A stretch of 64,000 bases of DNA from the NCBI GenBank assembly GCA_963805945.1, contig CAWDVP010000004.1, positions 96,001 to 160,000 of the forward strand. Reading direction: 5' to 3'. How positions within the stretch are numbered: the first letter of the stretch is position 1; the number at the start of each line of letters is the position of its first letter. This document shows, in pieces, positions 6,778-52,785 of the stretch. This DNA comes from Vulcanimicrobiota bacterium (GTDB lineage: Bacteria > Vulcanimicrobiota > Vulcanimicrobiia > Eremiobacterales > Eremiobacteraceae). The notes beneath the pieces are model-generated. The model made no database searches and was not told the DNA's origin. It saw only the letters and a list, made by a program, of their open reading frames with translations. The position numbers were made by a program, and so were the translations under genes.

Positions 6778-7487
6778 GACTGTTGATCTGCAATGCCGAC
6801 GACGAACACGATGAGCGCTCCGGGACCGTGCGCGCCGAGGACGAGCACTTTTTCGATGTCCGCTGAACGGCTAGGCCCGGTGATGATGACGCCCTCGCCC
6901 TTCGACCCATCGCGTGCAGCGCCGTAGAGCGAGCTCAGCGCCGCGTCGTCCATGTGGGGGTGGAGCTGCGACGCGTCAGCAAGCACGATGCAGGTGCGCG
7001 GCAGATACGGCAGCAGCCGTTCGCCGCGCGCCTTGAAGAGCGCGATCACCGAGCCGGTGTCGGCGAGCAGCGCTTCCGCCTCGACGATACCGCAGTTCGC
7101 CGCTTCGATCCGATCTTTCGTCGCGCCGGCCGCCTGGAAGAACCGGTCGCCCTTCAGGAGCGCAAGCGCAGCGCTCACACGCGTCGAGTTCTGCACCGCG
7201 GCGGTCGTCAGCCCGCGGTCGGTGAGGAAGCGCGCTAAGGCGAAAGGCAGTTCGCTCGCGGCGGAGACGAAGACCACCTCCCCTTGCAGCGCGATCAGCT
7301 CTTTCTTGAAAGCGGCTGCGAGCTCGGTGGTGTCCGTAGTGCCCGAGCGGAGCTCGGGGAACACGGACGCGATCGGCGGCAGCTCGCGCGCAGGCTCGTC
7401 CGCCAGCGCCGTGCGAATCGCGTCAAGCACATCGGCGCGCGCAGCACTCGACGTCTGCTTGGCCAGTTGAAGCGGATCGGTGCTCAC
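6774..7487 (-). CDS. lutC: LUD-domain lactate utilization protein C
   Basis: ITGPSRSADIEKVLVLGAHGP; GTGA coupling to lutB. Confidence 0.88.
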   Translation of the reverse strand: MSTDPLQLAKQTSSAARADVLDAIRTALADEPARELPPIASVFPELRSGTTDTTELAAAFKKELIALQGEVVFVSAASELPFALARFLTDRGLTTAAVQNSTRVSAALALLKGDRFFQAAGATKDRIEAANCGIVEAEALLADTGSVIALFKARGERLLPYLPRTCIVLADASQLHPHMDDAALSSLYGAARDGSKGEGVIITGPSRSADIEKVLVLGAHGPGALIVFVVGIADQQS

Positions 7488-8851
7488 TGCCGCTTTTCCC
7501 ACCATTCTTTGAACGTCTCGTCTGCCAAACGCGGCACCTCGCGCTGTTTCGCCCACGCGCCCAGCGGGCCAGGCCGCCAGCCGAGTTTCGCGAGCACGCC
7601 CGCACCCGTGCGCGCCAACCTCGTCGCGCGCCGATACTTGACCGCATCGCTCATCGCATCCGCCCACATCCCGAAGGCGGCGCGCTCGCTGCCCGAGCCG
7701 ACCGCTTTCTCGCTCACCGCTTTGTTGCGCAGGTGCACGAGCTGATGCGGCAGATCGATCTTGACCGGGCACTCCTCGCCGCACGCGCCGCACAGGCTCG
7801 AGGCGAACGGCAGTTCACCGGCCTTGTCGAGACCGAGCATCTGCGGCGTCTCGGTCGAGCCGATCGGCCCCGGATAGACCCAGCCGTACGCGTAGCCCCC
7901 GGCGCGGCGATAGATCGGACACACGTTCATGCACGCGCCGCAGCGGATGCAGTAGAGCGACTCGCGCGTCGCACGGTCTGCCATCACCTTGGTGCGGCCG
8001 GCGTCGATGATGATGCAGTACCACGTCTTGCCGTCGTCTGGCCCTAAGAAATGGTGCGTGTACACCGACAGCTTCTGGCCGGTCGCGGCGCGCGCGAGCA
8101 CGTGCAGGAACGGCGGCAGGTCCATGAGCCGCGGGATGATCTTCTCGATGCCCATGAGCGCGACGTACACCGGCGGCGCGGATGCCGAGAGCGCCTGATT
8201 GCCCTCGTTCTCGACGGTGACGACGGTGCCGGTCTCGGCGATCGCGAAATTGGCGCCGGTCATCCCGAGTTCGGCTTCCAGATAGCGCGTGCGCAGACGC
8301 GAGCGCGCGGCTTCGAGCAGCGCCTGCGGATCGTCCGTGTACGGGATGCCCAGCTTCTCGGTGAAGAGCTTGCCGATCTCTTGGCGCGACAGGTGCAGCG
8401 CCGGCGCGATGATGTGCGACGGCTTCTGGCCGGCGAGCTGCACGATGTACTCGCCGAGATCGGTCTCGACCGCGTCGATGCCGGCGGCCTCGAGCCGCTC
8501 GTTGAGCTCGAGCTCCTCCGAGAGCATCGACTTGCCTTTGACGACCGAATGCACGCCGTGCTTGCGACAGATGTCGAGGAAGTGCGCCGCGCCTTCTTCG
8601 GCGGTGCGCGCCCACAGCACGGTGCCGCCGCGCGCGCTGAACTGCTTCTCGAACTCGACGAGCAGCCAGTCGAGGTTGGCGATCGCGTATTCCTTGATCG
8701 CATGCACGCGCGCGCGCAGCTCCTGCCATGGCACCTGCTCTTGCGCGCGATGCTTGTCGTCGACGATGCGCGCCATGGTCGCCGGCATGCCGGGCGGACC
8801 GTGCGGATGCAGGAGCGCCGCGTGGACCGCCCGTTTGTCGTAGAGGCTCAC
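7484..8851 (-). CDS. lutB: Lactate utilization Fe-S protein B
   Basis: VETDLGEYIVQL, PSHIIAPALH, CIRCGACMNVCP and LCGACGEECP motifs. Confidence 0.93.
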   Translation of the reverse strand: MSLYDKRAVHAALLHPHGPPGMPATMARIVDDKHRAQEQVPWQELRARVHAIKEYAIANLDWLLVEFEKQFSARGGTVLWARTAEEGAAHFLDICRKHGVHSVVKGKSMLSEELELNERLEAAGIDAVETDLGEYIVQLAGQKPSHIIAPALHLSRQEIGKLFTEKLGIPYTDDPQALLEAARSRLRTRYLEAELGMTGANFAIAETGTVVTVENEGNQALSASAPPVYVALMGIEKIIPRLMDLPPFLHVLARAATGQKLSVYTHHFLGPDDGKTWYCIIIDAGRTKVMADRATRESLYCIRCGACMNVCPIYRRAGGYAYGWVYPGPIGSTETPQMLGLDKAGELPFASSLCGACGEECPVKIDLPHQLVHLRNKAVSEKAVGSGSERAAFGMWADAMSDAVKYRRATRLARTGAGVLAKLGWRPGPLGAWAKQREVPRLADETFKEWWEKRQ

Positions 8852-9612
8852 GTGGCGGCCAGCACTTGCGCGAGGTGCATCGTGCGGATGCCGGCGCTCG
8901 CGGGATCGCGCCGCAGCAGACCGTCGATCTGCATGAGACAGCTCGAATCGGCGGAGACGAGCACCTCTGCGCCCGTCGCGCGCACGTTGGCGCACTTGGC
9001 GTTGCCCATCGACGCCGACAGCTCGTCGAACTTGACGCTGAACAGGCCGCCGAAACCGCAGCACTCTTCGACCGCGGGCAGCTCGATAAGGGTGGCGTCT
9101 TTCACCGCGCGCAGCAGGCGCAGCGGCGCGTCGCCGACCTTGAGCTCGCGACGGCCGTGGCAGCCGTCGTGATAGGTGAGCGTGTGCGGGAAGCGCGCCC
9201 CGACGTCGATGACGCCGAGCGCTTCCACTAAGAACGTGGACAGCTCCCATACGCGCGCGCCGACTTCCGCGGCGAGCGAGCCTGGGTCGAGCGTCGGATA
9301 GAACACCTTGCACATGGACGCGCACGAGCCCGACGGCACGACGATCCATTCATAACCGTCGAACGTCTCGGCGAAATGTTGCGCGACTGGGCGGGCCTGG
9401 TCCCAGTGACCGGCGTTGAACGCCGGCTGGCCGCAGCAGGTCTGCTCGACCGGATAGCCGAGCGGTATGCCCAAGCGCTCGAACAGCGTGACCACGGACT
9501 TGCCGACGTCGGGATAGAGCAGATCGACGTAGCACGGCACGAAGAGCGCGACTCGATCTCCGGTCGCATAGGTCTTCTTCGTCTGCGGTAAGGCGGCGTC
9601 CATTGCGCGCAT
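8848..9612 (-). CDS. lutA: Lactate utilization protein A (CCG-domain Fe-S protein)
   Basis: QTCCGQP, SGSC, YHDGCH and ECCGFGG motifs; start uncertain (9603 or 9612). Confidence 0.9.
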   Translation of the reverse strand: MRAMDAALPQTKKTYATGDRVALFVPCYVDLLYPDVGKSVVTLFERLGIPLGYPVEQTCCGQPAFNAGHWDQARPVAQHFAETFDGYEWIVVPSGSCASMCKVFYPTLDPGSLAAEVGARVWELSTFLVEALGVIDVGARFPHTLTYHDGCHGRRELKVGDAPLRLLRAVKDATLIELPAVEECCGFGGLFSVKFDELSASMGNAKCANVRATGAEVLVSADSSCLMQIDGLLRRDPASAGIRTMHLAQVLAAT

Positions 9613-9695
9613 GGCTTTTGTGGCGGCATCGCTTTCACCCGCTGTCGTCCCGGCCGGCAAATGCGCGGCGACGACTCTTCGACAACAGCGCGGGC

Positions 9696-10490
9696 ATGGC
9701 GGACTTCAAAGGTAAGAACATCATCATCACCGGCGGCGGCAGCGGCTTGGGCGCTGCGATGGCCATACATCTCGCTGCATTGGGCGGGCGGGTCATCGTG
9801 GCCGGGCGGCGCCCGGAGATGCTCGCGGAAACGGTTGCCGCGATCGAGACCGCAGGCGGCAAGGCTGACGCCATACCGACCGACGTCCGCGTGCCCGAAC
9901 AGGTGCAGGCGCTCGTCGACGGCGTGGTCAGCAAGCACGGCAGCGTCGATTGCCTGGTCAACAACGCCGCCGGCAACTTCATCGTGCGCGCGGAAGAGCT
10001 CTCGCCGAACGGCTGGAACGCGGTGATCAACATCGTGCTCAACGGCACGTTCTATTGCTCGCGCGCCGTGGGCAAGGCGATGATCGCCGCCGGTCATGGC
10101 GGTTCGATCCTCAACATCGTCGCGGCGTACGCGTGGACCGGTGGACCCGGCACGATCCATTCCGCGGCGGCCAAGGCGGGCGTCATCTCGATGACGCAAA
10201 CGCTAGCGGTGGAGTGGGGCCATCACGGCATCCGCGTGAACGCGCTGTGTCCGGGCGTCGTGAACACGCCGGGCGCCGCCGCGAAGCTCTTCCCGACCGA
10301 GGCGATCCGCGATCGCATCGCGCGGCGCGTGCCGCTCGGCCGGCTCGAGACGTCTGACGAAGTCGCTAAGGCAGCCGCATATCTGCTGTCCGACGATGCG
10401 TCCTATGTCAACGGCGCGGTGCTGGTGGCCGACGGCGGCATGTGGCTCGATCAGGGATTGCTCGCCGCAAACGCCCCCGAAGGCATGTAG
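9696..10490 (+). CDS. SDR oxidoreductase, 2,4-dienoyl-CoA reductase-like
   Basis: TGGGSGLG, NNAAGNF and HSAAAKAG motifs. Confidence 0.85.
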   Translation: MADFKGKNIIITGGGSGLGAAMAIHLAALGGRVIVAGRRPEMLAETVAAIETAGGKADAIPTDVRVPEQVQALVDGVVSKHGSVDCLVNNAAGNFIVRAEELSPNGWNAVINIVLNGTFYCSRAVGKAMIAAGHGGSILNIVAAYAWTGGPGTIHSAAAKAGVISMTQTLAVEWGHHGIRVNALCPGVVNTPGAAAKLFPTEAIRDRIARRVPLGRLETSDEVAKAAAYLLSDDASYVNGAVLVADGGMWLDQGLLAANAPEGM

Positions 10491-33568: not shown

Positions 33569-35356
33569 ATGGAACACGATCGGCGCGACAATCCTTGGGA
33601 GCGCATCGCCGCGCGCCTCGACGAGGCGCTCGAGGAGGGGCGTAGCCTCGCCGAACGCCCGCAGAGCGCGCCGCGCGCCGCATCCACCGCCAATAAGCTG
33701 CTCGATCTGCTCGCCCGCGCCCGTTCCGAGGTGAACGCGCGCGAACTCGAGGCGAGCGCGGCGTCCGCACGCGCACAACGGCTTCAGAGCGAACTCGATA
33801 TCCAGCGGCGGCGCGCCGACACGCTCGTGCGGATCGGCAAGGCGATCAACGCGGTGCGGCGGCTCGATTCGCTGCTCCAGCTCGTCGTCGATCTTGCCGT
33901 CGAGGCGACCGGCGCCGAGCGCGGGCTCATCGTCGTGCCGGACCCCGCCGGCGGCCGCCAGGAGTTCAGCGCAGGCGCCAACCTCGATCCCGACATCGTC
34001 GCGCGGCCTGAGTTCGCGGTGAGCCGTTCGATCATCGAACGCGTCTTCAGCGAGGGCACGCCGCTCGTCACCACCGACGCGCAGAACGACCCGGACGTCG
34101 ACGCGTCGCCGAGCATCCGCTCGCTGCACATCCGCTCGATCAACTGCGTGCCGATCCAGAGCAAGAGCGGCACCATCGGCGTCATCTATGTGGACTCGCG
34201 CATCCGCACGGACAGCCTGTTCCAGCACGATCCCGAACTGCTCTCGACCATCGCCGACCAGGCGGCGGTCGCGATCGACAACGCGCGCCTGTACGACGAC
34301 TGGAACCGCAGCTTCAACGAACTGTCGACGATCAAGGCGCAGACCGACGAGATCCTCGAGTCGATCGCCTCGGGCGTCATCGTGCTCGATCCGAACGACG
34401 TGATCGCGCAGTTCAACCGCGCGGCAGAGATCACGTTCGGCCTCTCCGCATCGACGCTCGAAGGCCGCCACGCGCGCATCCTCAACTCGTGGCTGCCGGG
34501 CTTCACGACGCTGCTCGAACAGTACAAGAAACGGCCGGAATCGCGCGCCGAGGTCGAGATGCGCGGCACGCACTTCGTGCGCGGCCCGATCGTGCTGCAG
34601 GCGGCGTTCCTGCGCATCCATCCGTTGTCCGGCGCCGGCGTCGGCACGGCCGTCGTGCTCAACGACCTCACCGCGCGGCGCCTGCTCGAAGCGGAGAACC
34701 AAGCGCAGATCGAGCACAGCGAAAAGGTCGCGCGATCGTTCGAGCGCTATCTCGCGCCGCACGTCGTCAGCGGCTTGCTGCTCGATCCGGATAAGGTGCC
34801 GCTCGGCGGCACGCGCCTCACCGCGACGATGCTGTTCGCCGATATCCGCGGCTTCACCGAGCTCTCCGAACGGCTCATGCCTGAAGAAGTCGTCGACATG
34901 CTCAACCGCTACCTCGCGCCGACGGTCGACGTCGTGCTCGCCAACCTCGGCTTGCTCGACAAGTACTATGGCGACGGCATCATGGCGGTCTTCGGCGCAC
35001 CGCGGCCAGCGAACGATGACGCCAACCGCGCGGTGCTCGCCGCGCGCCAGATCCTCGAACAGGTGGAGCTGCTCAACGCGCAGCCGGGCGTGCATTGGCC
35101 GCTGTCGGTGAGCATCGGCCTGGCGACGGGCGACGTCGTCGCGGGCAACATCGGCTCGGAACGGCGGCTCGAGTACACCGTCGTCGGCAGCGCGGTCAAT
35201 CTCGCGCAGCGCTTGCAGTCGATCGCCGAACCGAACCAGATCCTCGCGGACGCGCGCACGTATGAGAAGGTGCGCGGGCAGATCGCGGCGACCCAGCGTC
35301 AGGCGCGCATCAAGGGCCGCGCCGGGCTGACGACCGTCTACGTCTTGCACGGCTAG
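33569..35356 (+). CDS. Class III adenylate cyclase with GAF and PAS domains
   Basis: GAF IRSINCVPI..GVIYVDS; PAS FNRAAE; catalytic LFADIRGFT, DKYYGDG and EYTVVGSAVNLAQRL. Confidence 0.93.
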   Translation: MEHDRRDNPWERIAARLDEALEEGRSLAERPQSAPRAASTANKLLDLLARARSEVNARELEASAASARAQRLQSELDIQRRRADTLVRIGKAINAVRRLDSLLQLVVDLAVEATGAERGLIVVPDPAGGRQEFSAGANLDPDIVARPEFAVSRSIIERVFSEGTPLVTTDAQNDPDVDASPSIRSLHIRSINCVPIQSKSGTIGVIYVDSRIRTDSLFQHDPELLSTIADQAAVAIDNARLYDDWNRSFNELSTIKAQTDEILESIASGVIVLDPNDVIAQFNRAAEITFGLSASTLEGRHARILNSWLPGFTTLLEQYKKRPESRAEVEMRGTHFVRGPIVLQAAFLRIHPLSGAGVGTAVVLNDLTARRLLEAENQAQIEHSEKVARSFERYLAPHVVSGLLLDPDKVPLGGTRLTATMLFADIRGFTELSERLMPEEVVDMLNRYLAPTVDVVLANLGLLDKYYGDGIMAVFGAPRPANDDANRAVLAARQILEQVELLNAQPGVHWPLSVSIGLATGDVVAGNIGSERRLEYTVVGSAVNLAQRLQSIAEPNQILADARTYEKVRGQIAATQRQARIKGRAGLTTVYVLHG

Positions 35357-39550: not shown

Positions 39551-40021
39551 TCAGCCCGCCTTGGTGAGGCGCAGCACTTCCGTGAGCACGTCGTTCGCGG
39601 CCCAGAAGAGATCGGACAGCTCGCTCTTCTTCTGCGTGAGCGCGGTCGCGGCGAGCGGCGCCGACGCGTAGACGCCGTCGGATTTCAATATGAAGAAACC
39701 GACGTTGCCCGGCGCCGGCGGCGCATACTGCGTGGTCTTGGTGAAGCGATCGAGATGCTGTCCGGCGAGCTTGAGCAGCTTCGCGCCGGCGTTGCGGACC
39801 GCCGCGTGCGCGCCGGCGCCGATCGTGCCGCCGCCGGTGCCGAGGTAGAGGCTCGTCGTGCCGTCCGCGAGGGTGACGATCGTCGCCAAGCCCGCCGGCA
39901 GCGCGAAGTCGACCACGGCGCCCCACACGCCGTTGGGCAGCGGCGTGATGCCGACGCGCTCGAACGTGGTGGTGAGCGCCATCGTGCGCATCGTCTCCAT
40001 GACGTTGGGAGAATCCGGCAT
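39551..40021 (-). CDS. Hypothetical protein
   Basis: ATIVTLADGTTSLYLGTGGGTIGAG pattern; lies in the lysS-truA operon. Confidence 0.7.
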   Translation of the reverse strand: MPDSPNVMETMRTMALTTTFERVGITPLPNGVWGAVVDFALPAGLATIVTLADGTTSLYLGTGGGTIGAGAHAAVRNAGAKLLKLAGQHLDRFTKTTQYAPPAPGNVGFFILKSDGVYASAPLAATALTQKKSELSDLFWAANDVLTEVLRLTKAG

Positions 40022-40026
40022 GAGGG

Positions 40027-41523
40027 CTACTCCGGTTTTTGCAGCGGGAACAGCAGCACGTCGCGGATCGATTCTTCGCCGGTGAGCAGCATGATGAGGC
40101 GATCGACGCCGATGCCCAGGCCGCCGGTGGGCGGCATGCCGTACTCGAGCGCTTGGACGTAATCCCAATCGGGCTCGGGCGCTTCGGCGTCGCCCTTGGC
40201 GCGCTCGGCCGCCTGCGCCTCGAAGCGTTTGCGCTGGTCGTCCGGGTCGTTGAGCTCCGAGAACGCGTTGACCATCTCCATGTGCGCGATGAACAGCTCG
40301 AAGCGCTCGACGAGCTGTGGGTCGTTCGCTTTGCGCTTCGCCAGCGGCGAGAGCACCACGGGAAAATCGGTGATGAAGGTGGGGCTGATCAGCTGCGGCT
40401 CGACGACCTGCTCGAAGATCTTGTCGATGACGTGGCCGTGGCTGTCGCCTTTCTTGACGTCGAGTTTGAGCTTCGCCGCGACGTCGCGCGCGCGGCGCTC
40501 GTCGAGCGCGTCCTCGCGCGAAAGATTTCCCCATTTCGCCAGCGCGTCGAGATAGGCGATGCGCCCGAACGGCCGCTCCAGCGCGATCGGCTCGCCCGCG
40601 AAGATGTGTTCACCGCGCACGCCTGCGACCGCGGCGAGGTGCAAGATGAGATCCTCGGACAGCTCCATCATGCTCTCGTAATCGCCGTACGCCTCGTACA
40701 GCTCGAGCATGGTGAACTCCGGGTTGTGGCGCCGGTCGATGCCCTCGTTGCGGAAGATGCGGCCCAGCTCGTACACCTTCTCGATGCCGCCGACGATGCA
40801 GCGCTTGAGGTTCAGTTCGGTCGCGATGCGCAATTGCAGCGGGATGTCGAGCGCGTTCGAGCGCGTCATGAACGGCCGCGCGTTGGCGCCGCCGGCGATC
40901 GAGACGAGCGTCGGCGTCTCCACCTCGACGTAACCGCGGTCGTCGAGATAGCGGCGCGTCTCGGCGATCAGCCGGCTGCGCAGCAGCATCGTCTCGAGCA
41001 CCGGCCGGTTTACGATGAGGTCGACGTAGCGGCGGCGATAGCGCGCCTCGTGATCGGTGAGTCCGTGCCACTTCTCGGGCAGCGGGCGTAGCGACTTGGC
41101 GAGCACGCTCAGTCGCTTGACGGCGATCGTCAGCTCGCCGGTCTTGGTGACGAACGGCTCGCCGTCGACGCCGACGAGGTCGCCGCGATCGAGCATGTCG
41201 GCGAAGCGGAACTCATCGCCGAGCGTATCGGCGCGCAGGTATATCTGGATGCGGCCGGACTGGTCCGAGAGATCCGAGAACATCGCCTTCTTGCCCATGT
41301 CGCGCACCGTGCCGAGCCGCCCGGCGACGCTGACAGACACGTCGGCATGCTCGCCGGCTTTGAGCTCGCCATAGGTATCGTGGAGCGCGCGCGCGCTGTG
41401 CGTACGCTCGAACTTGGTGATCGCGAACGGGTCGCGGCCGGATGAACGCAGCGCGTCGAGCTTGGCCCGACGCGCCTTGATGAGCTCTGACTCGGTCGTG
41501 CCGAGCTCGTGGTCTTCGCTCAC
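40027..41523 (-). CDS. lysS: Lysine--tRNA ligase (class II)
   Basis: LPEKWHGL, RYRRRYVDL, FRNEG, HNPEFT and YGMPPTGG motifs. Confidence 0.97.
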   Translation of the reverse strand: MSEDHELGTTESELIKARRAKLDALRSSGRDPFAITKFERTHSARALHDTYGELKAGEHADVSVSVAGRLGTVRDMGKKAMFSDLSDQSGRIQIYLRADTLGDEFRFADMLDRGDLVGVDGEPFVTKTGELTIAVKRLSVLAKSLRPLPEKWHGLTDHEARYRRRYVDLIVNRPVLETMLLRSRLIAETRRYLDDRGYVEVETPTLVSIAGGANARPFMTRSNALDIPLQLRIATELNLKRCIVGGIEKVYELGRIFRNEGIDRRHNPEFTMLELYEAYGDYESMMELSEDLILHLAAVAGVRGEHIFAGEPIALERPFGRIAYLDALAKWGNLSREDALDERRARDVAAKLKLDVKKGDSHGHVIDKIFEQVVEPQLISPTFITDFPVVLSPLAKRKANDPQLVERFELFIAHMEMVNAFSELNDPDDQRKRFEAQAAERAKGDAEAPEPDWDYVQALEYGMPPTGGLGIGVDRLIMLLTGEESIRDVLLFPLQKPE

Positions 41524-42026
41524 CGAGCCTTCGCTCTACCGCTCTTGCGATTCGCTCTGATGGAGATGACGCGCAGCTGCACGTCGCCGCTGGGCGTCGT
41601 CGCGGTGACCGTCTGGCCGGGCTTCGCGCCCATGAGCGCGGTGCCGATCGGCGAATCGTTCGAGATCTTGGCGTCGAGCGGATCGCTCTCGGCGCTGCCG
41701 ACGATCGTGTACTCGGCCTCGCTGTTCGCGGTGATGTTGCGCACCTTGACGGTGCTCGCGAGATGGACTTCATCCGCGCCGCCCTCACCCTCGACGATGA
41801 TCTTCGCGTTGCGGATCATCGCTTCGAGCTTCATGATGCGGCCTTCGATGAACGCCTGCTCCTGCTTGGCGTCCTCGTACTCCGCGTTTTCCGAGATATC
41901 GCCGAATTCTTTGGCCTGGCGGATGCGGTCGTTCACCTCTTTGCGGTGGACGGTCTTGAGCTCCTCGAGCTCGGCTTCGAGCTTTTTCAGCCCATCAGCG
42001 GTGAGGACGGTCTCTTTTTCTTGCAC
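41520..42026 (-). CDS. greA: Transcription elongation factor GreA
   Basis: GDISENAEY and SPIGTAL motifs. Confidence 0.96.
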   Translation of the reverse strand: MQEKETVLTADGLKKLEAELEELKTVHRKEVNDRIRQAKEFGDISENAEYEDAKQEQAFIEGRIMKLEAMIRNAKIIVEGEGGADEVHLASTVKVRNITANSEAEYTIVGSAESDPLDAKISNDSPIGTALMGAKPGQTVTATTPSGDVQLRVISIRANRKSGRAKAR

Positions 42027-42036
42027 TTGGTCCCTT

Positions 42037-42960
42037 TCAGGTTGTCGTTGCGGGGAGGCGGAAATCTTCGATCCGCGGTGCGAACTTCAGCTCTTTCATG
42101 ACGCGCATGTAATCGTCGTGGGTCACGTCCGCCCAGCGCTTGCCGAGCAGCGCGAGCAGCGCCGCCTCAAGCACATTGGTGCCGAACGAGCGGCCGCCCA
42201 GGTTCGGCGTGCTCGTCACCAGACGCGCCACGCCGCGCGAGCGAAGCTCTTCGACGTTCGTCTGCGTCACCGTGTTGGTGAGGATGGTCTTGCCGCGCAG
42301 ATCGTCTGGCATGTGCTGGCGGATGAAGTGGAAATCGCCGGCGACCGTCTCGGCGGCCGCGTAGTACTGCGAGTACTTCGGCGACGGCGGCTTCTCTTGT
42401 TTCTTGCCGGTCGGATAGAAGAACTGGAACGGCAGCTTGCAGGCGTCGGGCAGATACTTCTCGGCGAGCGCCTCGAACTCGGCGAGCGAGGTGACCGGCT
42501 TGTCGACGTCGAGCGCGAAGATGAAATCGCCGAAGGTGAGGCGTGCGCCCGCTTCGGAGAGCGCCTGCGCCATGCCGAAGCGATCGAGCGCGCTCACCAT
42601 GAGCACTGGCATGTCGCGGAAATCCATGATGCCGTTGGATTGCAGATAGCGCACGGTCTCGCGCTCGAGGCTGTTCTTGAGCCCGCTGCCGTCCACCACC
42701 GGCGTCACCTTCACCGCTTCGAGCATGCGCAAGCCGTCGCGCAGCGCGTAGCGTTTGGTGCCGGCATACAGGTAGACATCGATGCCGCCCAAACCGATCG
42801 CGTCGACGGTGCCGTCCAACTCGTGCAGCTTCGCGATGGCGCGGTCGAGCGATCCATCGAAGCCGATGCGGCTGATGTCGAAACGCTCGCCCAACCACTC
42901 CACCTCGACGCGGTGGTCGCGGGTCGACGAGCCGAGACTGACCGAGACGACCTTCTTCAT
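42037..42960 (-). CDS. Uncharacterised dehydrogenase-like protein (family often labelled quinate 5-dehydrogenase)
   Basis: KVVSVSLGSSTRD, IGLGGID, VDGSGLKN, AGDF and GRSFGTNVLEA motifs. Confidence 0.7.
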   Translation of the reverse strand: MKKVVSVSLGSSTRDHRVEVEWLGERFDISRIGFDGSLDRAIAKLHELDGTVDAIGLGGIDVYLYAGTKRYALRDGLRMLEAVKVTPVVDGSGLKNSLERETVRYLQSNGIMDFRDMPVLMVSALDRFGMAQALSEAGARLTFGDFIFALDVDKPVTSLAEFEALAEKYLPDACKLPFQFFYPTGKKQEKPPSPKYSQYYAAAETVAGDFHFIRQHMPDDLRGKTILTNTVTQTNVEELRSRGVARLVTSTPNLGGRSFGTNVLEAALLALLGKRWADVTHDDYMRVMKELKFAPRIEDFRLPATTT

Positions 42961-44165
42961 GTCGCTTTCGCCGGCCGCGTCGTCGCTTTTGCCGTCCGCT
43001 TCGCGGGCTTGAGCGCCGGCGTGACTTCGGGCGCGCCGTTGTGCGCGATGGCGCCGGGCTGCGCGGTCTGCTGTGCGGCCTGTGCGGCGCGCGCCGCGCG
43101 CGCGAGCTCCCGCGTGCGCGCGATCTGCTCGTCGCTCACCGGTTTGTCGAACGCGCGCATGCTCGCGAGCTTGAAGCCGTGCTTGTCGGCGAGCCGCTCC
43201 ATCTCGAGCACTTTGTCGAGATGGATGCCGCGGCCGAGCGAATAGTTCTCGAAACGTCCTTCGAGCGTGAGGATCATCGTCTCCGACATGCACGCGAGCG
43301 CGGTGCGCGGCGGCAGGCCGAAGTCGAAGTGGAAATCGGGCTCGCCCGGCACGAGGATGTTGCCGCCTTCGCTCACCAGCACGTCCGGCCGCTCCGACGC
43401 GACGCGTCGCGAGACGTCGTGCGGCAGCGAGACCTCGGAGATGACCGCGCCAGGGCGCAGGTCCTCAGGCTCGACGATCGTCGAGACGGCGGAGGTCGCG
43501 GTGAGGATGAGGTCGGCGCTGCGCACCGCCTCGCGGATATCGGTGGTCCAGTCGAGCGCCGCCGAGACGTGCGGTTGCATCGCTTGCGTGAGATTCTTCA
43601 AGCGCGTCGCGTTACGCGCGGCAAGCGTCAGGCGCGCGACCTTAGTGCCGAGGATCTGGGAACACGCCGAGCCGATAGAGCCGGTCGCGCCGATGACCAC
43701 GGCGTGCGCGGACGCGAGATCGACATCGAGCTCGCGCGCGCCGCGGAACGCGCTTTGGATGCCCGACGCGATGGTGTACGTGTTGCCGGTGGTGATGGCG
43801 ATCCCCGGCACGGTCTCGGCAAGCGTCACGCCGCCGTCGCCGACGACCGCGGAGAAGCCGCCCAGGCCGATGATGCCGCAGCCAAGCTCCTTCGCCAGCT
43901 TCGCGGCGCCGACGAGGCGGTCCATGATGAAGTCCCGCGGCAGATCAAGCCATTGTTCGGGCATGATCGGCACGCCGATGAACACGCCTTCGATCTCCTC
44001 GCCGGTGCTCGCGCTGCGCACGCCGGTGATGTCGGAGACGCGATACGGCGGGATCCACTCGAGGATCTTCTTGATGATGGCGCGCCCCTTGCCGACGGCG
44101 CCGGGCTCGTAACGCTCGACGTCGTCGTAGGACAGCGGGTGCACCAGGAAGCCGAACTTGCGCAA
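42957..44165 (-). CDS. Long-chain acyl-ACP reductase-like protein
   Basis: FGFLVHP, GLGGFS, TTGNTYT, GATGSIG and ACMSE..LEGRFENYSLGR parallel the cyanobacterial AAR motifs, including the catalytic Cys. Confidence 0.75.
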   Translation of the reverse strand: MRKFGFLVHPLSYDDVERYEPGAVGKGRAIIKKILEWIPPYRVSDITGVRSASTGEEIEGVFIGVPIMPEQWLDLPRDFIMDRLVGAAKLAKELGCGIIGLGGFSAVVGDGGVTLAETVPGIAITTGNTYTIASGIQSAFRGARELDVDLASAHAVVIGATGSIGSACSQILGTKVARLTLAARNATRLKNLTQAMQPHVSAALDWTTDIREAVRSADLILTATSAVSTIVEPEDLRPGAVISEVSLPHDVSRRVASERPDVLVSEGGNILVPGEPDFHFDFGLPPRTALACMSETMILTLEGRFENYSLGRGIHLDKVLEMERLADKHGFKLASMRAFDKPVSDEQIARTRELARAARAAQAAQQTAQPGAIAHNGAPEVTPALKPAKRTAKATTRPAKAT

Positions 44166-44222
44166 TGGGCGGCCTGAACCTCAGATAGGCCCGGTCAAAG
44201 GGCGCCGGGACAGAGGCTCTTT

Positions 44223-44669
44223 CTACGCGCGGCGCGCCGCTTCCGCCCTGGTCTTCAGCGCGGTGAGCATCATGAGCGAGTTCTCTTCGACCTTCCTCTG
44301 AAGCGTCGGCCCGATGAGCTCGGCCAGCGTCGGCACCCCGAAATCGTAGTCGACGCCGAGGACCACGTGGGTCGTGCCGCCGCGCTCTTCAAAGGTCCAC
44401 GAGCCCTCGAATTTGTCGAGATCGCCCTCGGTGAGGCGGTAGTCGATGCGGGTGCGGGCGTCGTCGAAGACGTCGATCTCCGTCCATTCGATCGGCGCTT
44501 CTTCCACCAACGTCTTCCAACGCGTCGTCGTGCTGTTGCCGTCGCGCGAGAGCACGGTGACGGCCTCGACGTCGGGCATGAAGTCCGGATAGTGCTCCAT
44601 GTCCTTGGCGAGCTCGTAGATAGCCCGCGCCGGCGCAGCGATGTCGATCGTGGTCTCTACATAAGGCAT
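44223..44669 (-). CDS. SRPBCC/START (polyketide cyclase-like) protein
   Basis: DMEHYPDFMP and GDLDKFEGSWTF motifs. Confidence 0.88.
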   Translation of the reverse strand: MPYVETTIDIAAPARAIYELAKDMEHYPDFMPDVEAVTVLSRDGNSTTTRWKTLVEEAPIEWTEIDVFDDARTRIDYRLTEGDLDKFEGSWTFEERGGTTHVVLGVDYDFGVPTLAELIGPTLQRKVEENSLMMLTALKTRAEAARRA

Positions 44670-44714
44670 TGAGCGGCCGTGCGGGCTCCCGTGCGCATGA
44701 AAAATCGCGCCGTC

Positions 44715-45977
44715 TTACGAGCGCGCGGTGCGTGCAAGGTCACCCAGTTTTTCCTTGGCGGTGACCAGTCCTTGTTCGAGCAGCCGCAGCGCTTCGTCGA
44801 TCTCGTCTTTCGTCACGATGAGCGCGGGCTCGAGCCGGATGACCCGCTGTTGATTGAGGGTGTAGGCGACGGTGAGCCCGAGTTTGAGACATTCCGGGAT
44901 GATCGCGCCGCCGTAGCCTTCGTTGGTCAGCTCGACGCCGACGACAAGGCCACGACCGCGCACTTCGCTGATGACGTCGGGGTGGCGCGCCATCAGTCTC
45001 TCGGCCTGCGCAAGCAAGTATTCCCCCAACTCGCTCGAGCGCTCCACCAGGTGTTCTTCTTCTAAGACCTGCAGCGCGGCGAGGCCGGCGGTGCAAGCGA
45101 GCGGGTTGCCGCCGAAGGTCGAGGTGTGGATGAGCGGCGCGTGTCCGAAGGCGCTCATCCACACATCGCGTCTGGAGACCGTGACGCCGATCGGAATGAC
45201 GCCGCCGGAGAGGCCTTTGGCGGCGGTAAGGATGTCGGGCACGACCCCGTCGTGATCCACGCCCCACAGGTAGCCCGTGCGTCCGAGCCCGGTCTGTACT
45301 TCATCGGCGATGAACAGCGCGCCGTGCTTGTCGCACAGCTCGCGCACGCCGCGCAAGTAGCCGTCGGGCGGCACGATGACGCCGCCTTCGCATTGGATCG
45401 GCTCGACGATGAACGCGGCCGCCTCGGGCAGCGCCTCATCGAGCGCCTCGAGATCGCCGAAGACCACATGGGTGAACTCAGGGATCAGCGGCTTGAACGA
45501 ATCTTTGAAGACGTCGCGGCCGGTGGCGGTGAGCGAGCCCATCGTCTTGCCGTGGTAGGCGTTGTGCGTGCTCACGAGCTTGGTGCGTTTGGTCGACAGG
45601 CGCGCCATCTTCAGCGCCGCCTCCACCGCTTCGGTGCCGCTGTTCGAGAAGAAGCTGATCGTGAGGTCGCCCGGCGCGATGCGCGCGACTGCTGTCGCGA
45701 GTTCGGCGGTCTTGGCGTTGAAGAACACGCGCGACGAGAGCGCCATGTGCTCGAGCTGGGCGCGCACCGCGGCAACGACCTTCGGGTGCATGTAGCCGAG
45801 TGTGAAGACGCCGTAGCCGCCGCAGAAATCGAGATACGACTTGCCTTTTTCGTCGAAGACGCGGCAGCCGTGCGACTCGACCTCGACCGTCGCGCCGGCG
45901 AGCTTCATGAAGCGCGCCAGCGGCGGGTTGATGTGCTCTTTATACGCGTTGTAGACGCTATCGAAATCCATCGTCAC
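44715..45977 (-). CDS. Class III aminotransferase (PatA/ArgD-like)
   Basis: NSGTEAVE, YHGKT, EPIQCEGG, DEVQTGLGRTG, AKGLSGG and STFGGNP motifs. Confidence 0.93.
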   Translation of the reverse strand: MTMDFDSVYNAYKEHINPPLARFMKLAGATVEVESHGCRVFDEKGKSYLDFCGGYGVFTLGYMHPKVVAAVRAQLEHMALSSRVFFNAKTAELATAVARIAPGDLTISFFSNSGTEAVEAALKMARLSTKRTKLVSTHNAYHGKTMGSLTATGRDVFKDSFKPLIPEFTHVVFGDLEALDEALPEAAAFIVEPIQCEGGVIVPPDGYLRGVRELCDKHGALFIADEVQTGLGRTGYLWGVDHDGVVPDILTAAKGLSGGVIPIGVTVSRRDVWMSAFGHAPLIHTSTFGGNPLACTAGLAALQVLEEEHLVERSSELGEYLLAQAERLMARHPDVISEVRGRGLVVGVELTNEGYGGAIIPECLKLGLTVAYTLNQQRVIRLEPALIVTKDEIDEALRLLEQGLVTAKEKLGDLARTARS

Positions 45978-45984
45978 GACCGCT

Positions 45985-47610
45985 TTAGTGCGACACGACG
46001 GTTATCATGCCGGTCATGCCCTGATGGTAATCGCAGTGGTAGCTGATAGGACCCACCCGTGGGAACTTATAGGTGAAGGATTCGCCGGGCGGCAAGTCGC
46101 CGACGATCGAGCTGTCGCTCGACACCACGTCGTGCGCGTCCGTGTCCTTGTTCACCCACGTCACCGACCCGCCGACGTGGACGACGGTGTTGCTCGGAAA
46201 CGAATCATCGGTGATATCGATCTCGACATGCATCGGCGCCGGTGGGGGCGCGGCGGTCGGCGGCGGAGACGAGACCACCTGCGAATTGACGCACAGCGGC
46301 GAACTTGGATCCGACTGGACGCTGCCGTGATAGGCCCTGACGATGAAACACTCGGGAACCTTGAACGGCCCGAGGTCGGCGCCTCGTATGCCGCCGTTGG
46401 ACTGGTGGGCGACCTCCGGGCCGCCCGCTTGATACACGTTGTAGCCGTCGACGCTGGACACGCAACCGGATCCGCCGCACGGATTCCAATTCCAATACAA
46501 CACGGTGTGCCCCGTGCTGATGTATCCATCGCACTGTCCGCTCGACGATCCGAAGACGGCCTCACACGTGGCGATGTTCTGGATGGTGCGCACGTTCCAC
46601 GGCGCCGCCACGTACGCGCTCTGCCCGACGCAGTGCGTGCCGCTGTCATTCGATTCACGGCTCGTCGTGAACGCCGTGACCACGAAGCACTCGCCTTGGC
46701 TGAACGGCGAGATGCCTCGCAGCGTGATGCTGGGATTCGTCTGCGTGTCCACCAGCGTGCGCGTATAGCCTGCGTAGTGCACCTGATGCGCCATCGTGGT
46801 ATGCAGTGTCGTGATCGGCTCGAGCTTGAGCATCGTCACCGAGTATATGTGAAAGCCTTGGATCTGCTGCACACAGTTCGCGCTCTTGCAGGCCGCCCAG
46901 TTCCACACGAGCAGCAGCAGCCCGGTTTGCCCGATCACGGTCGGGCATATGAAGGCACCGGCCAAGCCCACATGGGCGGTGCAGACGCTGGGATTTGTGG
47001 TATACGTGAGGCCGGTGGGCGCGGCGACGAAACTCGGCGGCCCGGGGCTCGCCGTCGGATGCCCAAAGGGGATGACTTTCGTCGGATGCAGCACGATCAT
47101 GCTCGGGCTGGGATGCGGCGTCGCGCCGGCGTGCCCTTTGTTTGTGGAATGCGCGACGGACGCCGCTGATGCCGTCGTGCAACCGGCCGAGCGCACGGTC
47201 GTGATCTGGCCGGCGTCGTTGTTGAAATCGCTCTCTTTGATCCAGTGGCCCTGATTGATGATGACCGCGAGCGGCATCTTGGGCGCGGTCGCTTTGCCGG
47301 ACGCGTGGCGCACCAGATCGACTTCGACGACAGCCGAGCCGTTGGCCGCGATGGCGGGTAGCCCGGCGCTGCCGGTCCAGCTATGCGGCGTCGCGCTATC
47401 GTGGACGAACACCGCCGCGACGCCGCTGGCCGCCGGGCTGGACGCCGAACCGTGATTCGCGACGGTGATGCTGACCGCATACGTCTGTTCCGACCCGCTG
47501 CACGTCTCGGTCGCCGCTGTCGCCGCGATCACGAGATCCGGCTTGCCGCTCGCGTGAGCATGCGCCGACCCGATGACGAGCAGAAGCACGAAAAGAGCTA
47601 GCGTCTTCAT
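45985..47610 (-). CDS. Secreted multidomain protein: CARDB-like domain, two Cys-rich repeats, C-terminal cupredoxin
   Basis: Signal peptide; PDL..ITVAN..ESDFNND; WVNKD..HDV and YHCDYH..M type-1 copper ligands. Confidence 0.75.
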   Translation of the reverse strand: MKTLALFVLLLVIGSAHAHASGKPDLVIAATAATETCSGSEQTYAVSITVANHGSASSPAASGVAAVFVHDSATPHSWTGSAGLPAIAANGSAVVEVDLVRHASGKATAPKMPLAVIINQGHWIKESDFNNDAGQITTVRSAGCTTASAASVAHSTNKGHAGATPHPSPSMIVLHPTKVIPFGHPTASPGPPSFVAAPTGLTYTTNPSVCTAHVGLAGAFICPTVIGQTGLLLLVWNWAACKSANCVQQIQGFHIYSVTMLKLEPITTLHTTMAHQVHYAGYTRTLVDTQTNPSITLRGISPFSQGECFVVTAFTTSRESNDSGTHCVGQSAYVAAPWNVRTIQNIATCEAVFGSSSGQCDGYISTGHTVLYWNWNPCGGSGCVSSVDGYNVYQAGGPEVAHQSNGGIRGADLGPFKVPECFIVRAYHGSVQSDPSSPLCVNSQVVSSPPPTAAPPPAPMHVEIDITDDSFPSNTVVHVGGSVTWVNKDTDAHDVVSSDSSIVGDLPPGESFTYKFPRVGPISYHCDYHQGMTGMITVVSH

Positions 47611-47660
47611 GGCTGGGCCACTGCTTCTGCCTCGGAGGTGCGGCATCCCGCGATTCGAAC

Positions 47661-48277: not shown

Positions 48278-49348
48278 TTAGCCGAGTTTGGTGCCGCAGT
48301 TACCGCAGAACTTGGCGCCTTCGGGATTCTGCTGATGGCATTGCGGGCACTCGACCGTCGTGACCACCGCTTTGCCGCACTCCGGGCAGAACTTCGCGTC
48401 TGCCGGGATCTTCGCCTGACAGTGCGGGCAGGCGATCATCGCGACCGCCGCGCCGGCAGCGGCCGCGCCGCCACCGCCCGCAGCCGCGCCCGCGTTGCCC
48501 GCTTGCATCGCTTGGTTGAGCATGCCGGGGATCGCAAAACCGAGTCCGGCGCCCATGCCGATGCCCGCGGCCGCGCCCGCTGAGCCGCCGGGGTTCTGCG
48601 CGGCCTCTTCGAGCGAACGCGCAGCCTTGAACTGCATGTACTGATTCATGTTCCCGACGACGCCCATGCCGGTACGCTCGTCGATGACCTTCTGCACGTC
48701 GTCCGGCGGCGTGATCGCGTTGATGAGGAAATCGACCAGCTCGACGCCGTACTGCGCGAAGTCGTCCTTGACGCGCGCCTTGGCGGCCGCGTCGAGCGCG
48801 TCGTAGTTCTTGGCCAGGTCGAGCACGCTCTTCACCGTCTCGCCGAGCAGGTTGTTGAGCCGCGACACGATGATGTTGCGGAAGAAGTCCTGTAGCGACT
48901 CAGACGTGTAGACGTTTGCCGTGCCGACGATCTTGTTGACGAACAGCTGCGCATCGGTGACGCGCACCGAGAAGATGCCGTACGCGCGCAGACGCACCAT
49001 CGAGAACTCGGCATCGCGGAAGAGGATCGGCTCGGCCGTGCCCCAGCGCAGGTTCGTGAAGACGTTCATGCTCACGAAGTAGACCTGGCTCTGGAACGGC
49101 GAGGTGCCGCCGAACGGGATCGACAGGAACTTGGTGAGGACGGGCAGGTTCTGCGTCGACAGCGTGTAGCGGCCCGGCGTGAAGGTGTCGAGCGCGCGGC
49201 CATCGCGGAAGAACACCGCGGCCTGGCTCTCCTGCACGATGAGCTGGCTGCCCCACTTGATGTCGGTGGAGCCGGTCTCGGGCCAGCGATGCACGATCTG
49301 CTGCCCTGTGTTGTCGAAGAACTCGATGACCGAAAGGCCGAGTGCCAT
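48278..49348 (-). CDS. SPFH/band-7-like (YdjI-type) protein with double zinc ribbon
   Basis: GSQLIVQESQAAVF, PGRYTLST.NLP, WGT; four CxxC motifs at the C-terminus. Confidence 0.88.
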   Translation of the reverse strand: MALGLSVIEFFDNTGQQIVHRWPETGSTDIKWGSQLIVQESQAAVFFRDGRALDTFTPGRYTLSTQNLPVLTKFLSIPFGGTSPFQSQVYFVSMNVFTNLRWGTAEPILFRDAEFSMVRLRAYGIFSVRVTDAQLFVNKIVGTANVYTSESLQDFFRNIIVSRLNNLLGETVKSVLDLAKNYDALDAAAKARVKDDFAQYGVELVDFLINAITPPDDVQKVIDERTGMGVVGNMNQYMQFKAARSLEEAAQNPGGSAGAAAGIGMGAGLGFAIPGMLNQAMQAGNAGAAAGGGGAAAAGAAVAMIACPHCQAKIPADAKFCPECGKAVVTTVECPQCHQQNPEGAKFCGNCGTKLG

Positions 49349-51636: not shown

Positions 51637-52674
51637 CTAGATCGCGAGCGCGGTGTCCTGGTCTTCGAAGTCGCCGACGCCGACGACTTCAAGTTCTTGA
51701 GATCGCGCTTCTTCTAATATCGCGCGCACGTCGTCCGAGGTCGGCGCGTGGTTGATCCGCTCGCGCAGGCTCGACGCGCCGTGGATGCCCTTGACGTACC
51801 AACCGAGATGTTTGCGCATCTGCAGCACGCCCGACTTCTCGCCGTAGCGCTCGACCATCGCATCGAGATGCGCGCGCGCGAAATCGATGCGCTCGGCCAC
51901 CGACGGCGCCGCCGGCACCGGCTCTCCGCGCATCGCCGCCGCGATCTCGCGCACCAGCCACGGATTGCCGAGCGACGCGCGGCCGATCATGATCGCGTCG
52001 ACGCCGGTCTCGCTCATGCGCCGCATCGCGTCGGCGGCGCTGCCGATGTCGCCGTTGCCGATCACCGGCACGTGGAGCACTTCTTTGAGCTTGGCGATAT
52101 ACGACCAGTCAGCCGTGCCCTTATAGAACTGCTTGCCGTAGCGCCCGTGCAGCGTGAACGCGTCGATGCCGACCGCCTCCGCCCGTTGCGCGATGTCGAG
52201 ATGGGTGAAGTTGCTCTGCTCCCAGCCGAGCCGCATCTTCACGGTGACCGGGACCTTCTTCACCGCTTTGCGCACCGCGTCGCAGATGCGCACCGCGAGA
52301 TCGGGATCGCGCAGGATGGCGGCGCCATCGCCGCCTTTGGTGATCTTGGGCGCCGGGCAGCCGAAATTGATGTCGACGATGTCGGCGCCGCATTCTTCCA
52401 CGAACGCGGCCGCTTGCGCCATGACTTCGGGATCGCTGCCGTGCAGCTGGACCGCGGTCGGCCGCTCTTCCGGGTAGACGTCGACCATCTCGAGCGTACG
52501 CTTGTTCATCCGCAAGAGCGACTGGGCCGAGACGAATTCGCTCACCGTCAGCCCCAGGCCGAACGGCTTGAGGAGCTTGCGGAACAGAGCATTGGTGACC
52601 CCGGCCATCGGCGCGAGGGCCAGCGGCGGGAACATCTCGATGGCGCCGATGCGCAGCGGTTTGATGGGAGTCAT
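51637..52674 (-). CDS. dusB: tRNA-dihydrouridine synthase B
   Basis: LAPMAG, DINFGCP, VTVKMR, HGR, NGDI and RKHLGWY motifs. Confidence 0.93.
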   Translation of the reverse strand: MTPIKPLRIGAIEMFPPLALAPMAGVTNALFRKLLKPFGLGLTVSEFVSAQSLLRMNKRTLEMVDVYPEERPTAVQLHGSDPEVMAQAAAFVEECGADIVDINFGCPAPKITKGGDGAAILRDPDLAVRICDAVRKAVKKVPVTVKMRLGWEQSNFTHLDIAQRAEAVGIDAFTLHGRYGKQFYKGTADWSYIAKLKEVLHVPVIGNGDIGSAADAMRRMSETGVDAIMIGRASLGNPWLVREIAAAMRGEPVPAAPSVAERIDFARAHLDAMVERYGEKSGVLQMRKHLGWYVKGIHGASSLRERINHAPTSDDVRAILEEARSQELEVVGVGDFEDQDTALAI

Positions 52675-52712
52675 ACTCTCGGCCAGATTCGACCGGGCGG
52701 GGCGCCGCGCCT

Positions 52713-52738
52713 CGGTCGAATAAATTCGACCGCTCCAT
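52713..52738 (-). repeat. REP-like palindrome (GGAG variant)
   Basis: Minus strand reads atggagCGGTCGAA-ttta-TTCGACCG. Confidence 0.8.
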
Positions 52739-52785
52739 CGCCACGTGCGCGAAGGGCGAGCCCGCACGCAAGCGAACCCCTCTAG

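Follow-up and report, generated by a model that had tools for sequence, protein, structure and literature searches.

What do four co-oriented genes make that stand on the minus strand immediately upstream of greA-lysS in an uncultured member of the Eremiobacterota, a phylum widespread in soil and known chiefly through metagenomes? The stretch of DNA analysed (the window, 64,000 nucleotides) lies within contig 4 of the source genome, which measures 2.3 Mb and is 82% complete. The names attached to near homologues of the encoded proteins are of Eremiobacterota/Vulcanimicrobiota. The genes encode a class III (omega-type) pyridoxal phosphate (PLP) aminotransferase of 420 amino acids (AT; 44715-45977), a SRPBCC/START-fold protein of 148 amino acids (44223-44669), a NAD(P)H-dependent thioester reductase of 402 amino acids with a TTG start (RED; 42957-44165), assigned by models of PigE and of acyl-ACP reductase (AAR; ACP, acyl carrier protein), and a 307-amino-acid protein (UNK; 42037-42960), for which the AlphaFold model and the gene context suggest an AAR-like fold and a partnership with RED. 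The initial annotation of this DNA had placed four such genes here and read them as a route from acyl thioester through aldehyde to fatty amine. All four were found, and this interpretation was supported by every test that we ran, all of them computational.

We consider it somewhat better than an even chance that the four genes form a split, PigE-like thioester-to-amine module, acting on long-chain fatty acyl groups for membrane lipids. RED would take the acyl group from a fatty acyl thioester onto Cys292 and reduce it with NAD(P)H to the fatty aldehyde. The donor would most likely be acyl-ACP, with acyl coenzyme A (acyl-CoA) and acyl phosphate as further possibilities, the latter kept open because the PlsY-type domain family, found fused to RED in other bacteria, uses acyl phosphates. 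AT, as a PLP-dependent omega-transaminase, would convert the aldehyde to a primary long-chain alkylamine, and the SRPBCC/START protein (a SCP2 protein in other lineages) would hold or carry the water-insoluble aldehyde or amine. UNK would work in physical association with RED, to deliver the substrate, hand off the product or regulate. In this scheme gene order, family assignments, motifs, fusions and phyletic patterns are observed; how long the substrate chain is, in which direction the reactions run, what becomes of the amine and what the SRPBCC protein and UNK do are proposed. The most likely destination of the amine would be the membrane, in phosphoglycolipids of the N-glyceroyl alkylamine type; the narrower claim that the module supplies the alkylamine of precisely these lipids is a tentative proposal, to which we give rather less than an even chance.

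Reductase, aminotransferase and putative lipid-binding protein

The motifs by which the reductase had been recognised are all present in RED: GLGGF (residues 100-104), TTGNT (125-129), GATGSIG (159-165), ACMSE (291-295) and NYSLGR (307-312). The top NCBIfam model was the N-terminal half of PigE (1.1e-55, 189.4 bits, model positions 37-371), followed by the AAR model TIGR04058 (8.8e-29, 100.9 bits, and 101.1 bits in the genome search), below its equivalog cut-off of 449.7. The nearest PDB chains came in the same order, PigE (4ppm, 1.9e-31) and then AAR (6jzq, 3.8e-21), and a weak similarity to glutamyl-tRNA reductase was detected in the NAD domain (NCBIfam 2.1e-10; PDB 3oj0, 0.005). In the HMMER alignments Cys292 of RED was aligned with the Cys of the ACxAE stretch in cyanobacterial AAR and PigE, which we take to be the catalytic Cys. 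Residues C292, the GLG stretch, T125/G127, G159, G162 and G165 were invariant in 20/20 RED homologues from several phyla. RED of cultured Bacillota has no uniform database name: entries call it amino acid dehydrogenase, shikimate dehydrogenase, saccharopine dehydrogenase domain protein, acetylornithine aminotransferase or, in a few instances, acyl-ACP reductase. Residues ~353-402 (window 42960-43109, minus strand) form an Ala/Gln/Lys/Pro-rich basic tail that is probably disordered; it is absent from most homologues and present only in part in the nearest relative (L002).

RED is encoded in single copy. Only one PP-binding carrier protein was detected in the genome, an ACP of the fatty acid synthase type with 79 amino acids, which makes acyl-ACP from fatty acid synthesis the simplest donor for RED. 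No aldehyde-deformylating oxygenase (ADO) had been noticed beside the cluster, and the wider search agreed, PF11266 having no match anywhere in the genome (82% complete).

The omega-type, class III assignment of AT was confirmed by Pfam Aminotran_3 (PF00202; 364.8 bits, cut-off 30.5; profile positions 14-401 of 403). Its best NCBIfam model was the C-terminal half of PigE (423.9 bits, positions 378-732, below the cut-off of 850), and the putrescine aminotransferase models PRK11522 (422 bits, cut-off 612) and TIGR03372 (359.5 bits, cut-off 658.65) likewise matched below their cut-offs. Among solved structures, the E. coli putrescine aminotransferase was the best relative of AT (8e-100), followed by PigE (4ppm, 1e-89).

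Pfam also confirmed the membership of the START-fold protein in the SRPBCC family, by Polyketide_cyc (PF03364; 77.5 bits, cut-off 23.4) and Polyketide_cyc2 (PF10604; 64.4 bits, cut-off 27.4). The nearest solved relative, aligned over the full length, is the Thermus thermophilus START-superfamily protein TTHA0849 (2d4r, E 2.5e-23), deposited as a hypothetical protein. In Thermus-like genomes the gene for the SRPBCC homologue stands away from RED, UNK and AT; in one of them its neighbours encode RecX and a transposase, and are uninformative.

Gene linkage and phyletic distribution

Conservation of the arrangement was analysed in the best 80, ranked by similarity, of at least 599 species-level UNK-encoding loci, a set that is biased towards Eremiobacterota and in which several loci end at contig edges. 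AT (counted as a homologue at >= 45% identity), SRPBCC, RED and UNK occurred together in 50 of the 80 loci, with the SRPBCC gene between AT and RED. RED adjoined UNK in 66 loci, greA and/or lysS followed the cluster in 59, and RED with UNK but without AT and SRPBCC was found in 12. Records labelled Bacillota, Actinomycetes, Armatimonadota, Sumerlaeota and Thermus are also in the set. The four-gene arrangement exceeds chance.

The usual order in Bacillota-type loci is dus-(small helix-turn-helix protein)-UNK and/or RED-greA-lysS, with AT and SRPBCC absent. The small protein between dus and UNK/RED, of ~175-187 amino acids (L059:6470-6997, L082:954-1484, L079:6434-6997), has a weak HTH_3 match in 2/3 loci and may be a regulator of the block. 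In loci of the Peptococcaceae/Desulfallas type (L062, L065, L066, L076 and L077; positions ~7000-9700) UNK is followed by a gene for a SCP2 lipid carrier of 117-122 amino acids and then by an APC-family amino-acid permease; in 4/5 of these loci the gene after that, on the opposite strand, encodes a L,D-transpeptidase. Where the UNK locus lacks RED, RED was located elsewhere in the genome in all five cases. In Desulfallas (L077) it stands apart from UNK, at the dus/greA position, and in Alkaliphilus pronyensis it directly follows a 485-amino-acid AT (best model PigE), away from UNK. In the other three, two metagenome-assembled genomes (MAGs) of Bacillota and Thermus composti, it lies within a larger frame. 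AT at 46-48% identity was detected elsewhere in each of the five tested genomes whose loci hold UNK and RED only.

The strongest evidence of functional linkage comes from gene fusions. In the two Bacillota MAGs, RED lies inside a frame of ~880 amino acids, and in one of them (L086, 1-2046, genome G405) a class III aminotransferase domain precedes RED, in a domain order opposite to that of PigE. Frames of this kind, of ~880-1080 amino acids with the RED match split in two, were found in ~14 of the 68 RED-positive Bacillota-type genomes; the split suggests an insertion. The gene after the fused frame in L086 encodes a DegT/DnrJ-type aminotransferase.

UNK-RED fusions of 687-703 amino acids, with UNK N-terminal and RED C-terminal (40% identity to the RED of the window), were detected among the 150 best UNK representatives (3 of 150). 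With such a fusion as the query, 866 proteins matched at E <= 1e-30, and 116 of the 120 listed cover >= 91% of the 700-residue fusion; the named sources are Anaerolineae/Chloroflexota, Blastocatellia/Acidobacteriota, Wallbacteria and Riflebacteria. As judged from domain matches, UNK is repeatedly joined to enzymes that use acyl thioesters. In one further protein (P0203, 762 amino acids) an alpha-oxoamine synthase of the BioF/serine-palmitoyltransferase type (91-435) is fused before the UNK domain (467-735).

Within its own phylum RED was detected in 382/401 sampled genomes, in 244/247 of the high-quality ones and in 114/116 genera (the tally includes 14 genomes flagged unpublished, all matching; without these it is 368/387), a near-universal presence that agrees with a core function in the membrane. 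Of 101 sampled genomes of the Bacillota type (the phylum of a Thermoanaerobacter MAG), 68 have RED and 75 have UNK. Both genes were present in 67 of these, RED only in 1 (at a contig edge), UNK only in 8 and neither in 25, so that 9 genomes were discordant; since related genomes are non-independent, these counts are a description and not a test. Among the sampled Deinococcota genomes RED was present in 120/121 and UNK in 119/121. When 14 named control genomes were searched with the AAR model, it matched only Synechococcus elongatus (above the cut-off), Thermus thermophilus and Deinococcus radiodurans.

These distributions bear on a particular class of lipids. Thermus and Deinococcus have phosphoglycolipids built on N-glyceroyl alkylamine, and according to the 2022 paper on T. 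thermophilus, whose accessible passages name no enzyme, the genus "probably" possesses a route for attaching a branched fatty amine (PMC9636437). Moorella thermoacetica is listed with N-glyceroyl alkylamines in a table of a 2026 paper, and the title of Bale et al. 2025, cited there, refers to N-glyceroyl alkylamine lipids of Bacillota (PMC13274423, in excerpt). A comparison of the phyletic pattern with the taxa known for alkylamine lipids was positive, RED and UNK being present in nearly all Deinococcota and both widespread in Bacillota.

In Deinococcota, RED makes up the C-terminal portion of a 553-562-amino-acid protein, the N-terminal portion of which is a divergent PlsY-like (PF02660) membrane acyltransferase domain. 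This was found in 6/6 loci (L085:874-2535, L088:865-2532, L092:577-2535, L095:1492-3153, L102:3098-4780 and L104:3652-5340), both in small Thermus-like genomes, Thermus composti among them, and in Deinococcus-like genomes of 70-74% GC. The fusion keeps the Cys and has a variant nucleotide motif, GANGVV. A separate canonical PlsY (168-174 bits, compared with 90-105 bits for the fused domain) was present in 3/3 Deinococcota genomes tested, and the fused domain is therefore best seen as a specialised paralogue. It may couple amine formation to acyl-phosphate-dependent transfer at the membrane. The neighbours of the fusion in two Deinococcus-like loci include PLD-type and DedA/VTT-type membrane proteins. 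Thermus-like genomes encode AT at 50-51% identity, the next paralogue being at 40-41%, and a SRPBCC homologue at 34-35%; directly upstream of the AT orthologue, in one locus (L107, genome G410), lies a gene for a YbgC-type acyl-CoA thioesterase. In two Thermus-like loci (L098:1495-2397 and L100:1495-2397) UNK stands between an alpha/beta hydrolase gene and efp, with a 4-base overlap with the efp start, and in L098 a gene for a biotin carboxyl carrier protein (accB type) comes after efp.

The surroundings of the cluster in the window are compact. The transcription order on the minus strand is AT, SRPBCC, RED, UNK, greA, lysS, with gaps of 45 bases between AT and SRPBCC, 57 bases between SRPBCC and RED and 10 bases between UNK and greA; the UNK start codon and the RED stop share a 4-base ATGA overlap, and greA and lysS also overlap by 4 bases. 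The open reading frame (ORF) listed for the fourth gene (42037-43293) extends into RED. We place the true UNK start at the ATG at 42960, because homologues begin at MKKVV there. The downstream neighbour greA (41520-42026, minus; Pfam GreA_GreB_N and GreA_GreB) is conserved and is probably in the same transcript as the four genes. It is followed by lysS (40027-41523, minus), encoding a class II lysyl-tRNA synthetase (Pfam tRNA-synt_2 and an anticodon-binding OB domain). The upstream anchor is dus (51637-52767, minus; Pfam Dus, 323 bits), encoding a tRNA dihydrouridine synthase, and the cluster is an insertion into the conserved dus ... greA-lysS block.

A Pfam scan of 18 genes around the cluster (33569-55869) found housekeeping or unrelated functions and no prodiginine/tambjamine pigment cluster. 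Rfam detected no RNA element within the window, so neither a riboswitch nor a T-box accounts for the link to lysS. The gene that ends 7 bases upstream of AT (45985-47646, minus) encodes a 553-amino-acid protein that begins like a signal peptide and carries a CARDB domain and, at its C-terminal end, a cupredoxin domain, and may be co-transcribed with the cluster. A 159-amino-acid ORF between lysS and truA (39551-40030, minus) has no Pfam match and overlaps the lysS stop region. The genes for a GAF-PAS adenylate/guanylate cyclase (33569-35356) and for a SPFH/Band-7 protein with two C-terminal zinc ribbons (48278-49348) are unrelated to the cluster.

UNK, a protein family without a model

The fourth gene had been labelled an uncharacterised dehydrogenase, a label that finds no footing in family models, UNK having no Pfam or NCBIfam match at E <= 0.01 and no PDB sequence match at E <= 1. 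Pfam searches with 66 members of the family at E <= 1 returned scattered single matches only, none of them consistent and none to a shikimate/quinate dehydrogenase model. The family is large: 7961 of the 8000 candidates scored (90% clustering) matched at E <= 0.001, and at the same threshold there are 930 representatives after clustering at 50% identity. Database entries are named "hypothetical protein" or "quinate 5-dehydrogenase", and in the ESM Atlas we found only clusters auto-named "quinate 5-dehydrogenase"; the latter name is probably misleading.

An AlphaFold model of UNK (AF2, 66 sequences) reached a pLDDT of 96.4 and a pTM of 0.93. In a structure search independent of Foldseek its best match was AAR (6jzq; Z 13.5 over 248 residues, root-mean-square deviation 4.6, model residues 3-302 against AAR 1-344), followed at Z 12.0 by 9e4s, the terminal amidation domain (TAD) from the carmabin pathway. 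Glutamate dehydrogenase, the next unrelated family, reached Z 10.1, many two-domain alpha/beta proteins Z ~8-9.6, shikimate dehydrogenases 8.4-9.2 and the quinate dehydrogenase 3jyo 8.2. Foldseek also gave AAR and TAD the top TM-scores (0.47-0.54), with weak E-values. On this predicted structure, UNK is an AAR-fold protein, matched over the whole chain above other folds.

We detected no conserved Cys and no glycine-rich motif in the UNK family alignment. The conserved residues are mostly Gly and charged, and the invariant or near-invariant polar ones are R31, D90, K95, E99, R127, D145, Y182, D209, K224, R257 and N262. A manual motif alignment that juxtaposes the last helix-loop-helix-strand would pair the ACMSE region of RED with TNVLE of UNK, and GATGSIG with SALDRFG. 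If this alignment is right, UNK would retain the AAR scaffold, with Asn262 replacing the nucleophile Cys and the dinucleotide motif lost or degenerate. Of the two roles that had been suggested for the fourth gene, a partner subunit is supported by the AAR fold, the missing Cys and the fusions to RED, and a second reductase fits less well. A naturally occurring UNK-RED fusion, modelled with AF2 (P0207, 51-sequence alignment; pLDDT 88.2, pTM 0.69), could be a compact protein of two domains. When RED 1-352 and UNK were submitted to complex prediction, the score was 0.02, the mark being 0.32, and the outcome was used neither for nor against binding.

With still more reserve, as a conjecture that we hold below even chance, we put forward the combined proposal that RED, UNK, AT and the START protein are the machinery for the amine of N-glyceroyl alkylamine phosphoglycolipids and that UNK is a new enzyme or obligate subunit, in which Asn replaces Cys on the AAR scaffold.

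Alternatives, significance and known systems

Several observations weigh against a long-chain amine module for membrane lipids. The conserved neighbours dus, greA and lysS are translation and transcription genes, not lipid genes, and no acyl-activating or fatty acid synthesis gene was found within the window. Among characterised enzymes AT is closest to the E. coli putrescine aminotransferase, which leaves room for a diamine or another polar substrate. In Deinococcus-like genomes (3/3) the best AT is only 39-41% identical and SRPBCC is weak or not found; for this reason, only RED and UNK track the alkylamine-lipid trait through the whole of the Deinococcota. RED and UNK occur also in Anaerolineae, Blastocatellia and Negativicutes, for which we know of no report of alkylamine lipids, and the literature searched yielded no lipid data for Eremiobacterota. 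Comparison of the RED and UNK profiles by hhalign found no sequence relation (probability 0.3%), and the equivalence of the Cys with Asn262 consequently rests on fold similarity and the manual motif alignment. Finally, UNK is better conserved between phyla than RED (55% vs 32% identity to Thermus composti, 53% vs 46% to Thermoanaerobacter).

This last point leads to the alternative that survives best, in which RED and AT act as in the proposed module and UNK is a separate enzyme of the same pathway that, for example, joins or activates the glyceroyl unit or acts on the aldehyde or amine. Of the four proteins, UNK shows the highest conservation between phyla, which is unusual for a mere scaffold and, at the level of sequence, suggests an unrecognised catalytic role; it retains the polar residues from R31 to N262, occurs without RED in 8 of the 101 sampled Bacillota-type genomes and is fused also to a different acyl-thioester enzyme. 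However, UNK has no cofactor motif and no family model, and its fusion and tight co-occurrence with RED rather than with AT fit a role in the reductase step. We regard a separate enzyme as unlikely, if worth keeping in mind.

A second alternative keeps the fatty aldehyde and gives it another fate. RED and UNK would then supply a fatty alcohol, a long-chain diol or another lipid block, and AT would be an ordinary transaminase of amino acids or polyamines, a chance neighbour in Eremiobacterota. The many Bacillota loci of the UNK-RED-greA-lysS type without AT and SRPBCC, the 12 of 80 loci with RED and UNK alone, the lack of a clear AT orthologue in Deinococcus-like genomes and the AT scores, every one under its curated cut-off, are in line with this. 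On the other hand, RED-type and class III aminotransferase domains are fused in both orders (PigE and the ~880-residue Bacillota frame), AT adjoins RED in Alkaliphilus though UNK lies elsewhere, AT is encoded elsewhere in 5/5 of the tested genomes with UNK and RED only, and it is within the cluster in 50/80 loci under several phylum labels. We judge this second alternative to be improbable.

The third alternative, a housekeeping role in which the module acts on a small or polar donor (malonyl- or aminoacyl-thioester, acyl phosphate, or aminoacyl-tRNA as in glutamyl-tRNA reductase, GluTR), is in our view more improbable again. Examples would be malonate semialdehyde converted to beta-alanine for CoA and an amino aldehyde for polyamines. 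It draws on the housekeeping neighbours dus, greA and lysS (with coaX in a Thermovenabulum locus), on the proximity of AT to putrescine aminotransferase, on the weak similarity of RED to the GluTR NAD domain (2e-10), on the near-universal presence of RED in the phylum and on panD, which was not found in the genome (82% complete). Beta-alanine supply does not explain RED and UNK in T. thermophilus and D. radiodurans, because both have panD and yet keep the two genes.

The fusions and neighbours also speak against a polar donor. Hydrophobic acyl chains are indicated by the PlsY-like fusion, by SCP2 and SRPBCC proteins as partners, by the fusion of the BioF type and by the YbgC thioesterase, and these features, together with the single ACP and the absence of an ADO match, support the putative lipid link of the four-gene module. 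The two characterised relatives, AAR with fatty acyl-ACP and PigE with a thioester (PMC8341465, in excerpt), use chains of C8 or longer; the chain in the case of PigE is of medium length. An alkane pathway (AAR with ADO) was rejected, no ADO having been found in the genome (82% complete).

Deinococcus and Thermus have alkylamine phosphoglycolipids as major lipids of their membranes, and the cluster supplies candidate genes for the fatty amine step, carried by two easily manipulated models, Thermus thermophilus and Deinococcus radiodurans. If the membrane-lipid proposal is true, Deinococcota, many Bacillota and the uncultured Eremiobacterota would have amine-based lipids of the membrane as a core trait, and, from the UNK-RED fusions, such lipids would probably occur also in Anaerolineae and Blastocatellia. 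In addition, a very large protein family without a model is brought to notice, and for biocatalysis a reductase and a transaminase that make fatty amines in nature as soluble, unfused proteins would be of interest.

No paper assigning the RED, UNK, AT and SRPBCC genes was found in the literature searched, which excluded Bale et al. 2025 (Syst Appl Microbiol 48:126609), the main caveat to novelty. In the same literature we found no mention of the PlsY-like-RED fusion, and neither the split four-gene form, the AAR-fold partner family, the core-gene status in whole phyla nor the match to amine-lipid groups was found there.

The chemistry of a reductase with a transaminase is of a known kind, and the cluster can be placed among several systems that use it or share its parts. 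HemA and HemL (glutamyl-tRNA reductase and glutamate-1-semialdehyde aminomutase, GSAM) are alike in that a Cys-dependent reductase passes an aldehyde to a class III PLP enzyme, but the substrate of HemA is an aminoacyl-tRNA and the similarity of RED is confined to the Rossmann part. Cyanobacterial AAR (TIGR04058; 6jzq, 6jzy) and RED belong to one fold family and have in common the Cys in ACxxE and the nucleotide motif GxTGxIG. AAR works with ADO, whereas RED stands in a genome in which no ADO was found, scores far below the AAR cut-off and would make an aldehyde that is aminated, not deformylated. The carmabin TAD is described, in the portion of the preprint available, as binding NAD near an invariant Cys (bioRxiv 10.1101/2024.10.28.620694). 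This AAR-like domain (9e4s), the second-best structural match of UNK, has the Cys and binds NAD, whereas in UNK a conserved Cys and a glycine-rich motif are both missing.

Two tambjamine pathways come closer in function. Excerpts of PMC9594044 describe TamH (tambjamine YP1, Pseudoalteromonas) as forming a fatty amine by a reductase and omega-transaminase route, and the same thioester-aldehyde-amine route is given for TabE/TabA (tambjamine BE-18591, Streptomyces), with TabE described as lacking the usual AAR signatures, in the accessible part of bioRxiv 10.1101/2025.08.11.669332. TamH and TabE/TabA belong to secondary-metabolite clusters with their own carrier protein and an editing thioesterase, and are likened to RED and AT by description only.

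The closest system is PigE of the prodigiosin 2-methyl-3-n-amylpyrrole (MAP) pathway of Serratia (NF053554, 4ppm), which likewise combines an AAR-like, Cys-dependent reductase domain with a class III aminotransferase domain. According to the passages of PMC8341465 at hand, PigE is needed to turn a thioester intermediate into the amine-derived dihydro form, H2MAP, via aldehyde transamination; AAR served as the template for a model of its N-terminal domain, and the pair is likened there to GluTR/GSAM. PigE is the top NCBIfam model for both RED and AT and the top PDB chain for RED, and stands behind the E. coli putrescine aminotransferase for AT. The scores of RED (189.4 bits) and AT (423.9 bits) lie below the NF053554 cut-off of 850. 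PigE is a single polypeptide of 837-861 amino acids in a pigment cluster, whereas RED and AT are encoded by separate genes with the SRPBCC gene between them and, unlike PigE, are accompanied by UNK and SRPBCC, stand in housekeeping surroundings and are core genes of whole phyla.

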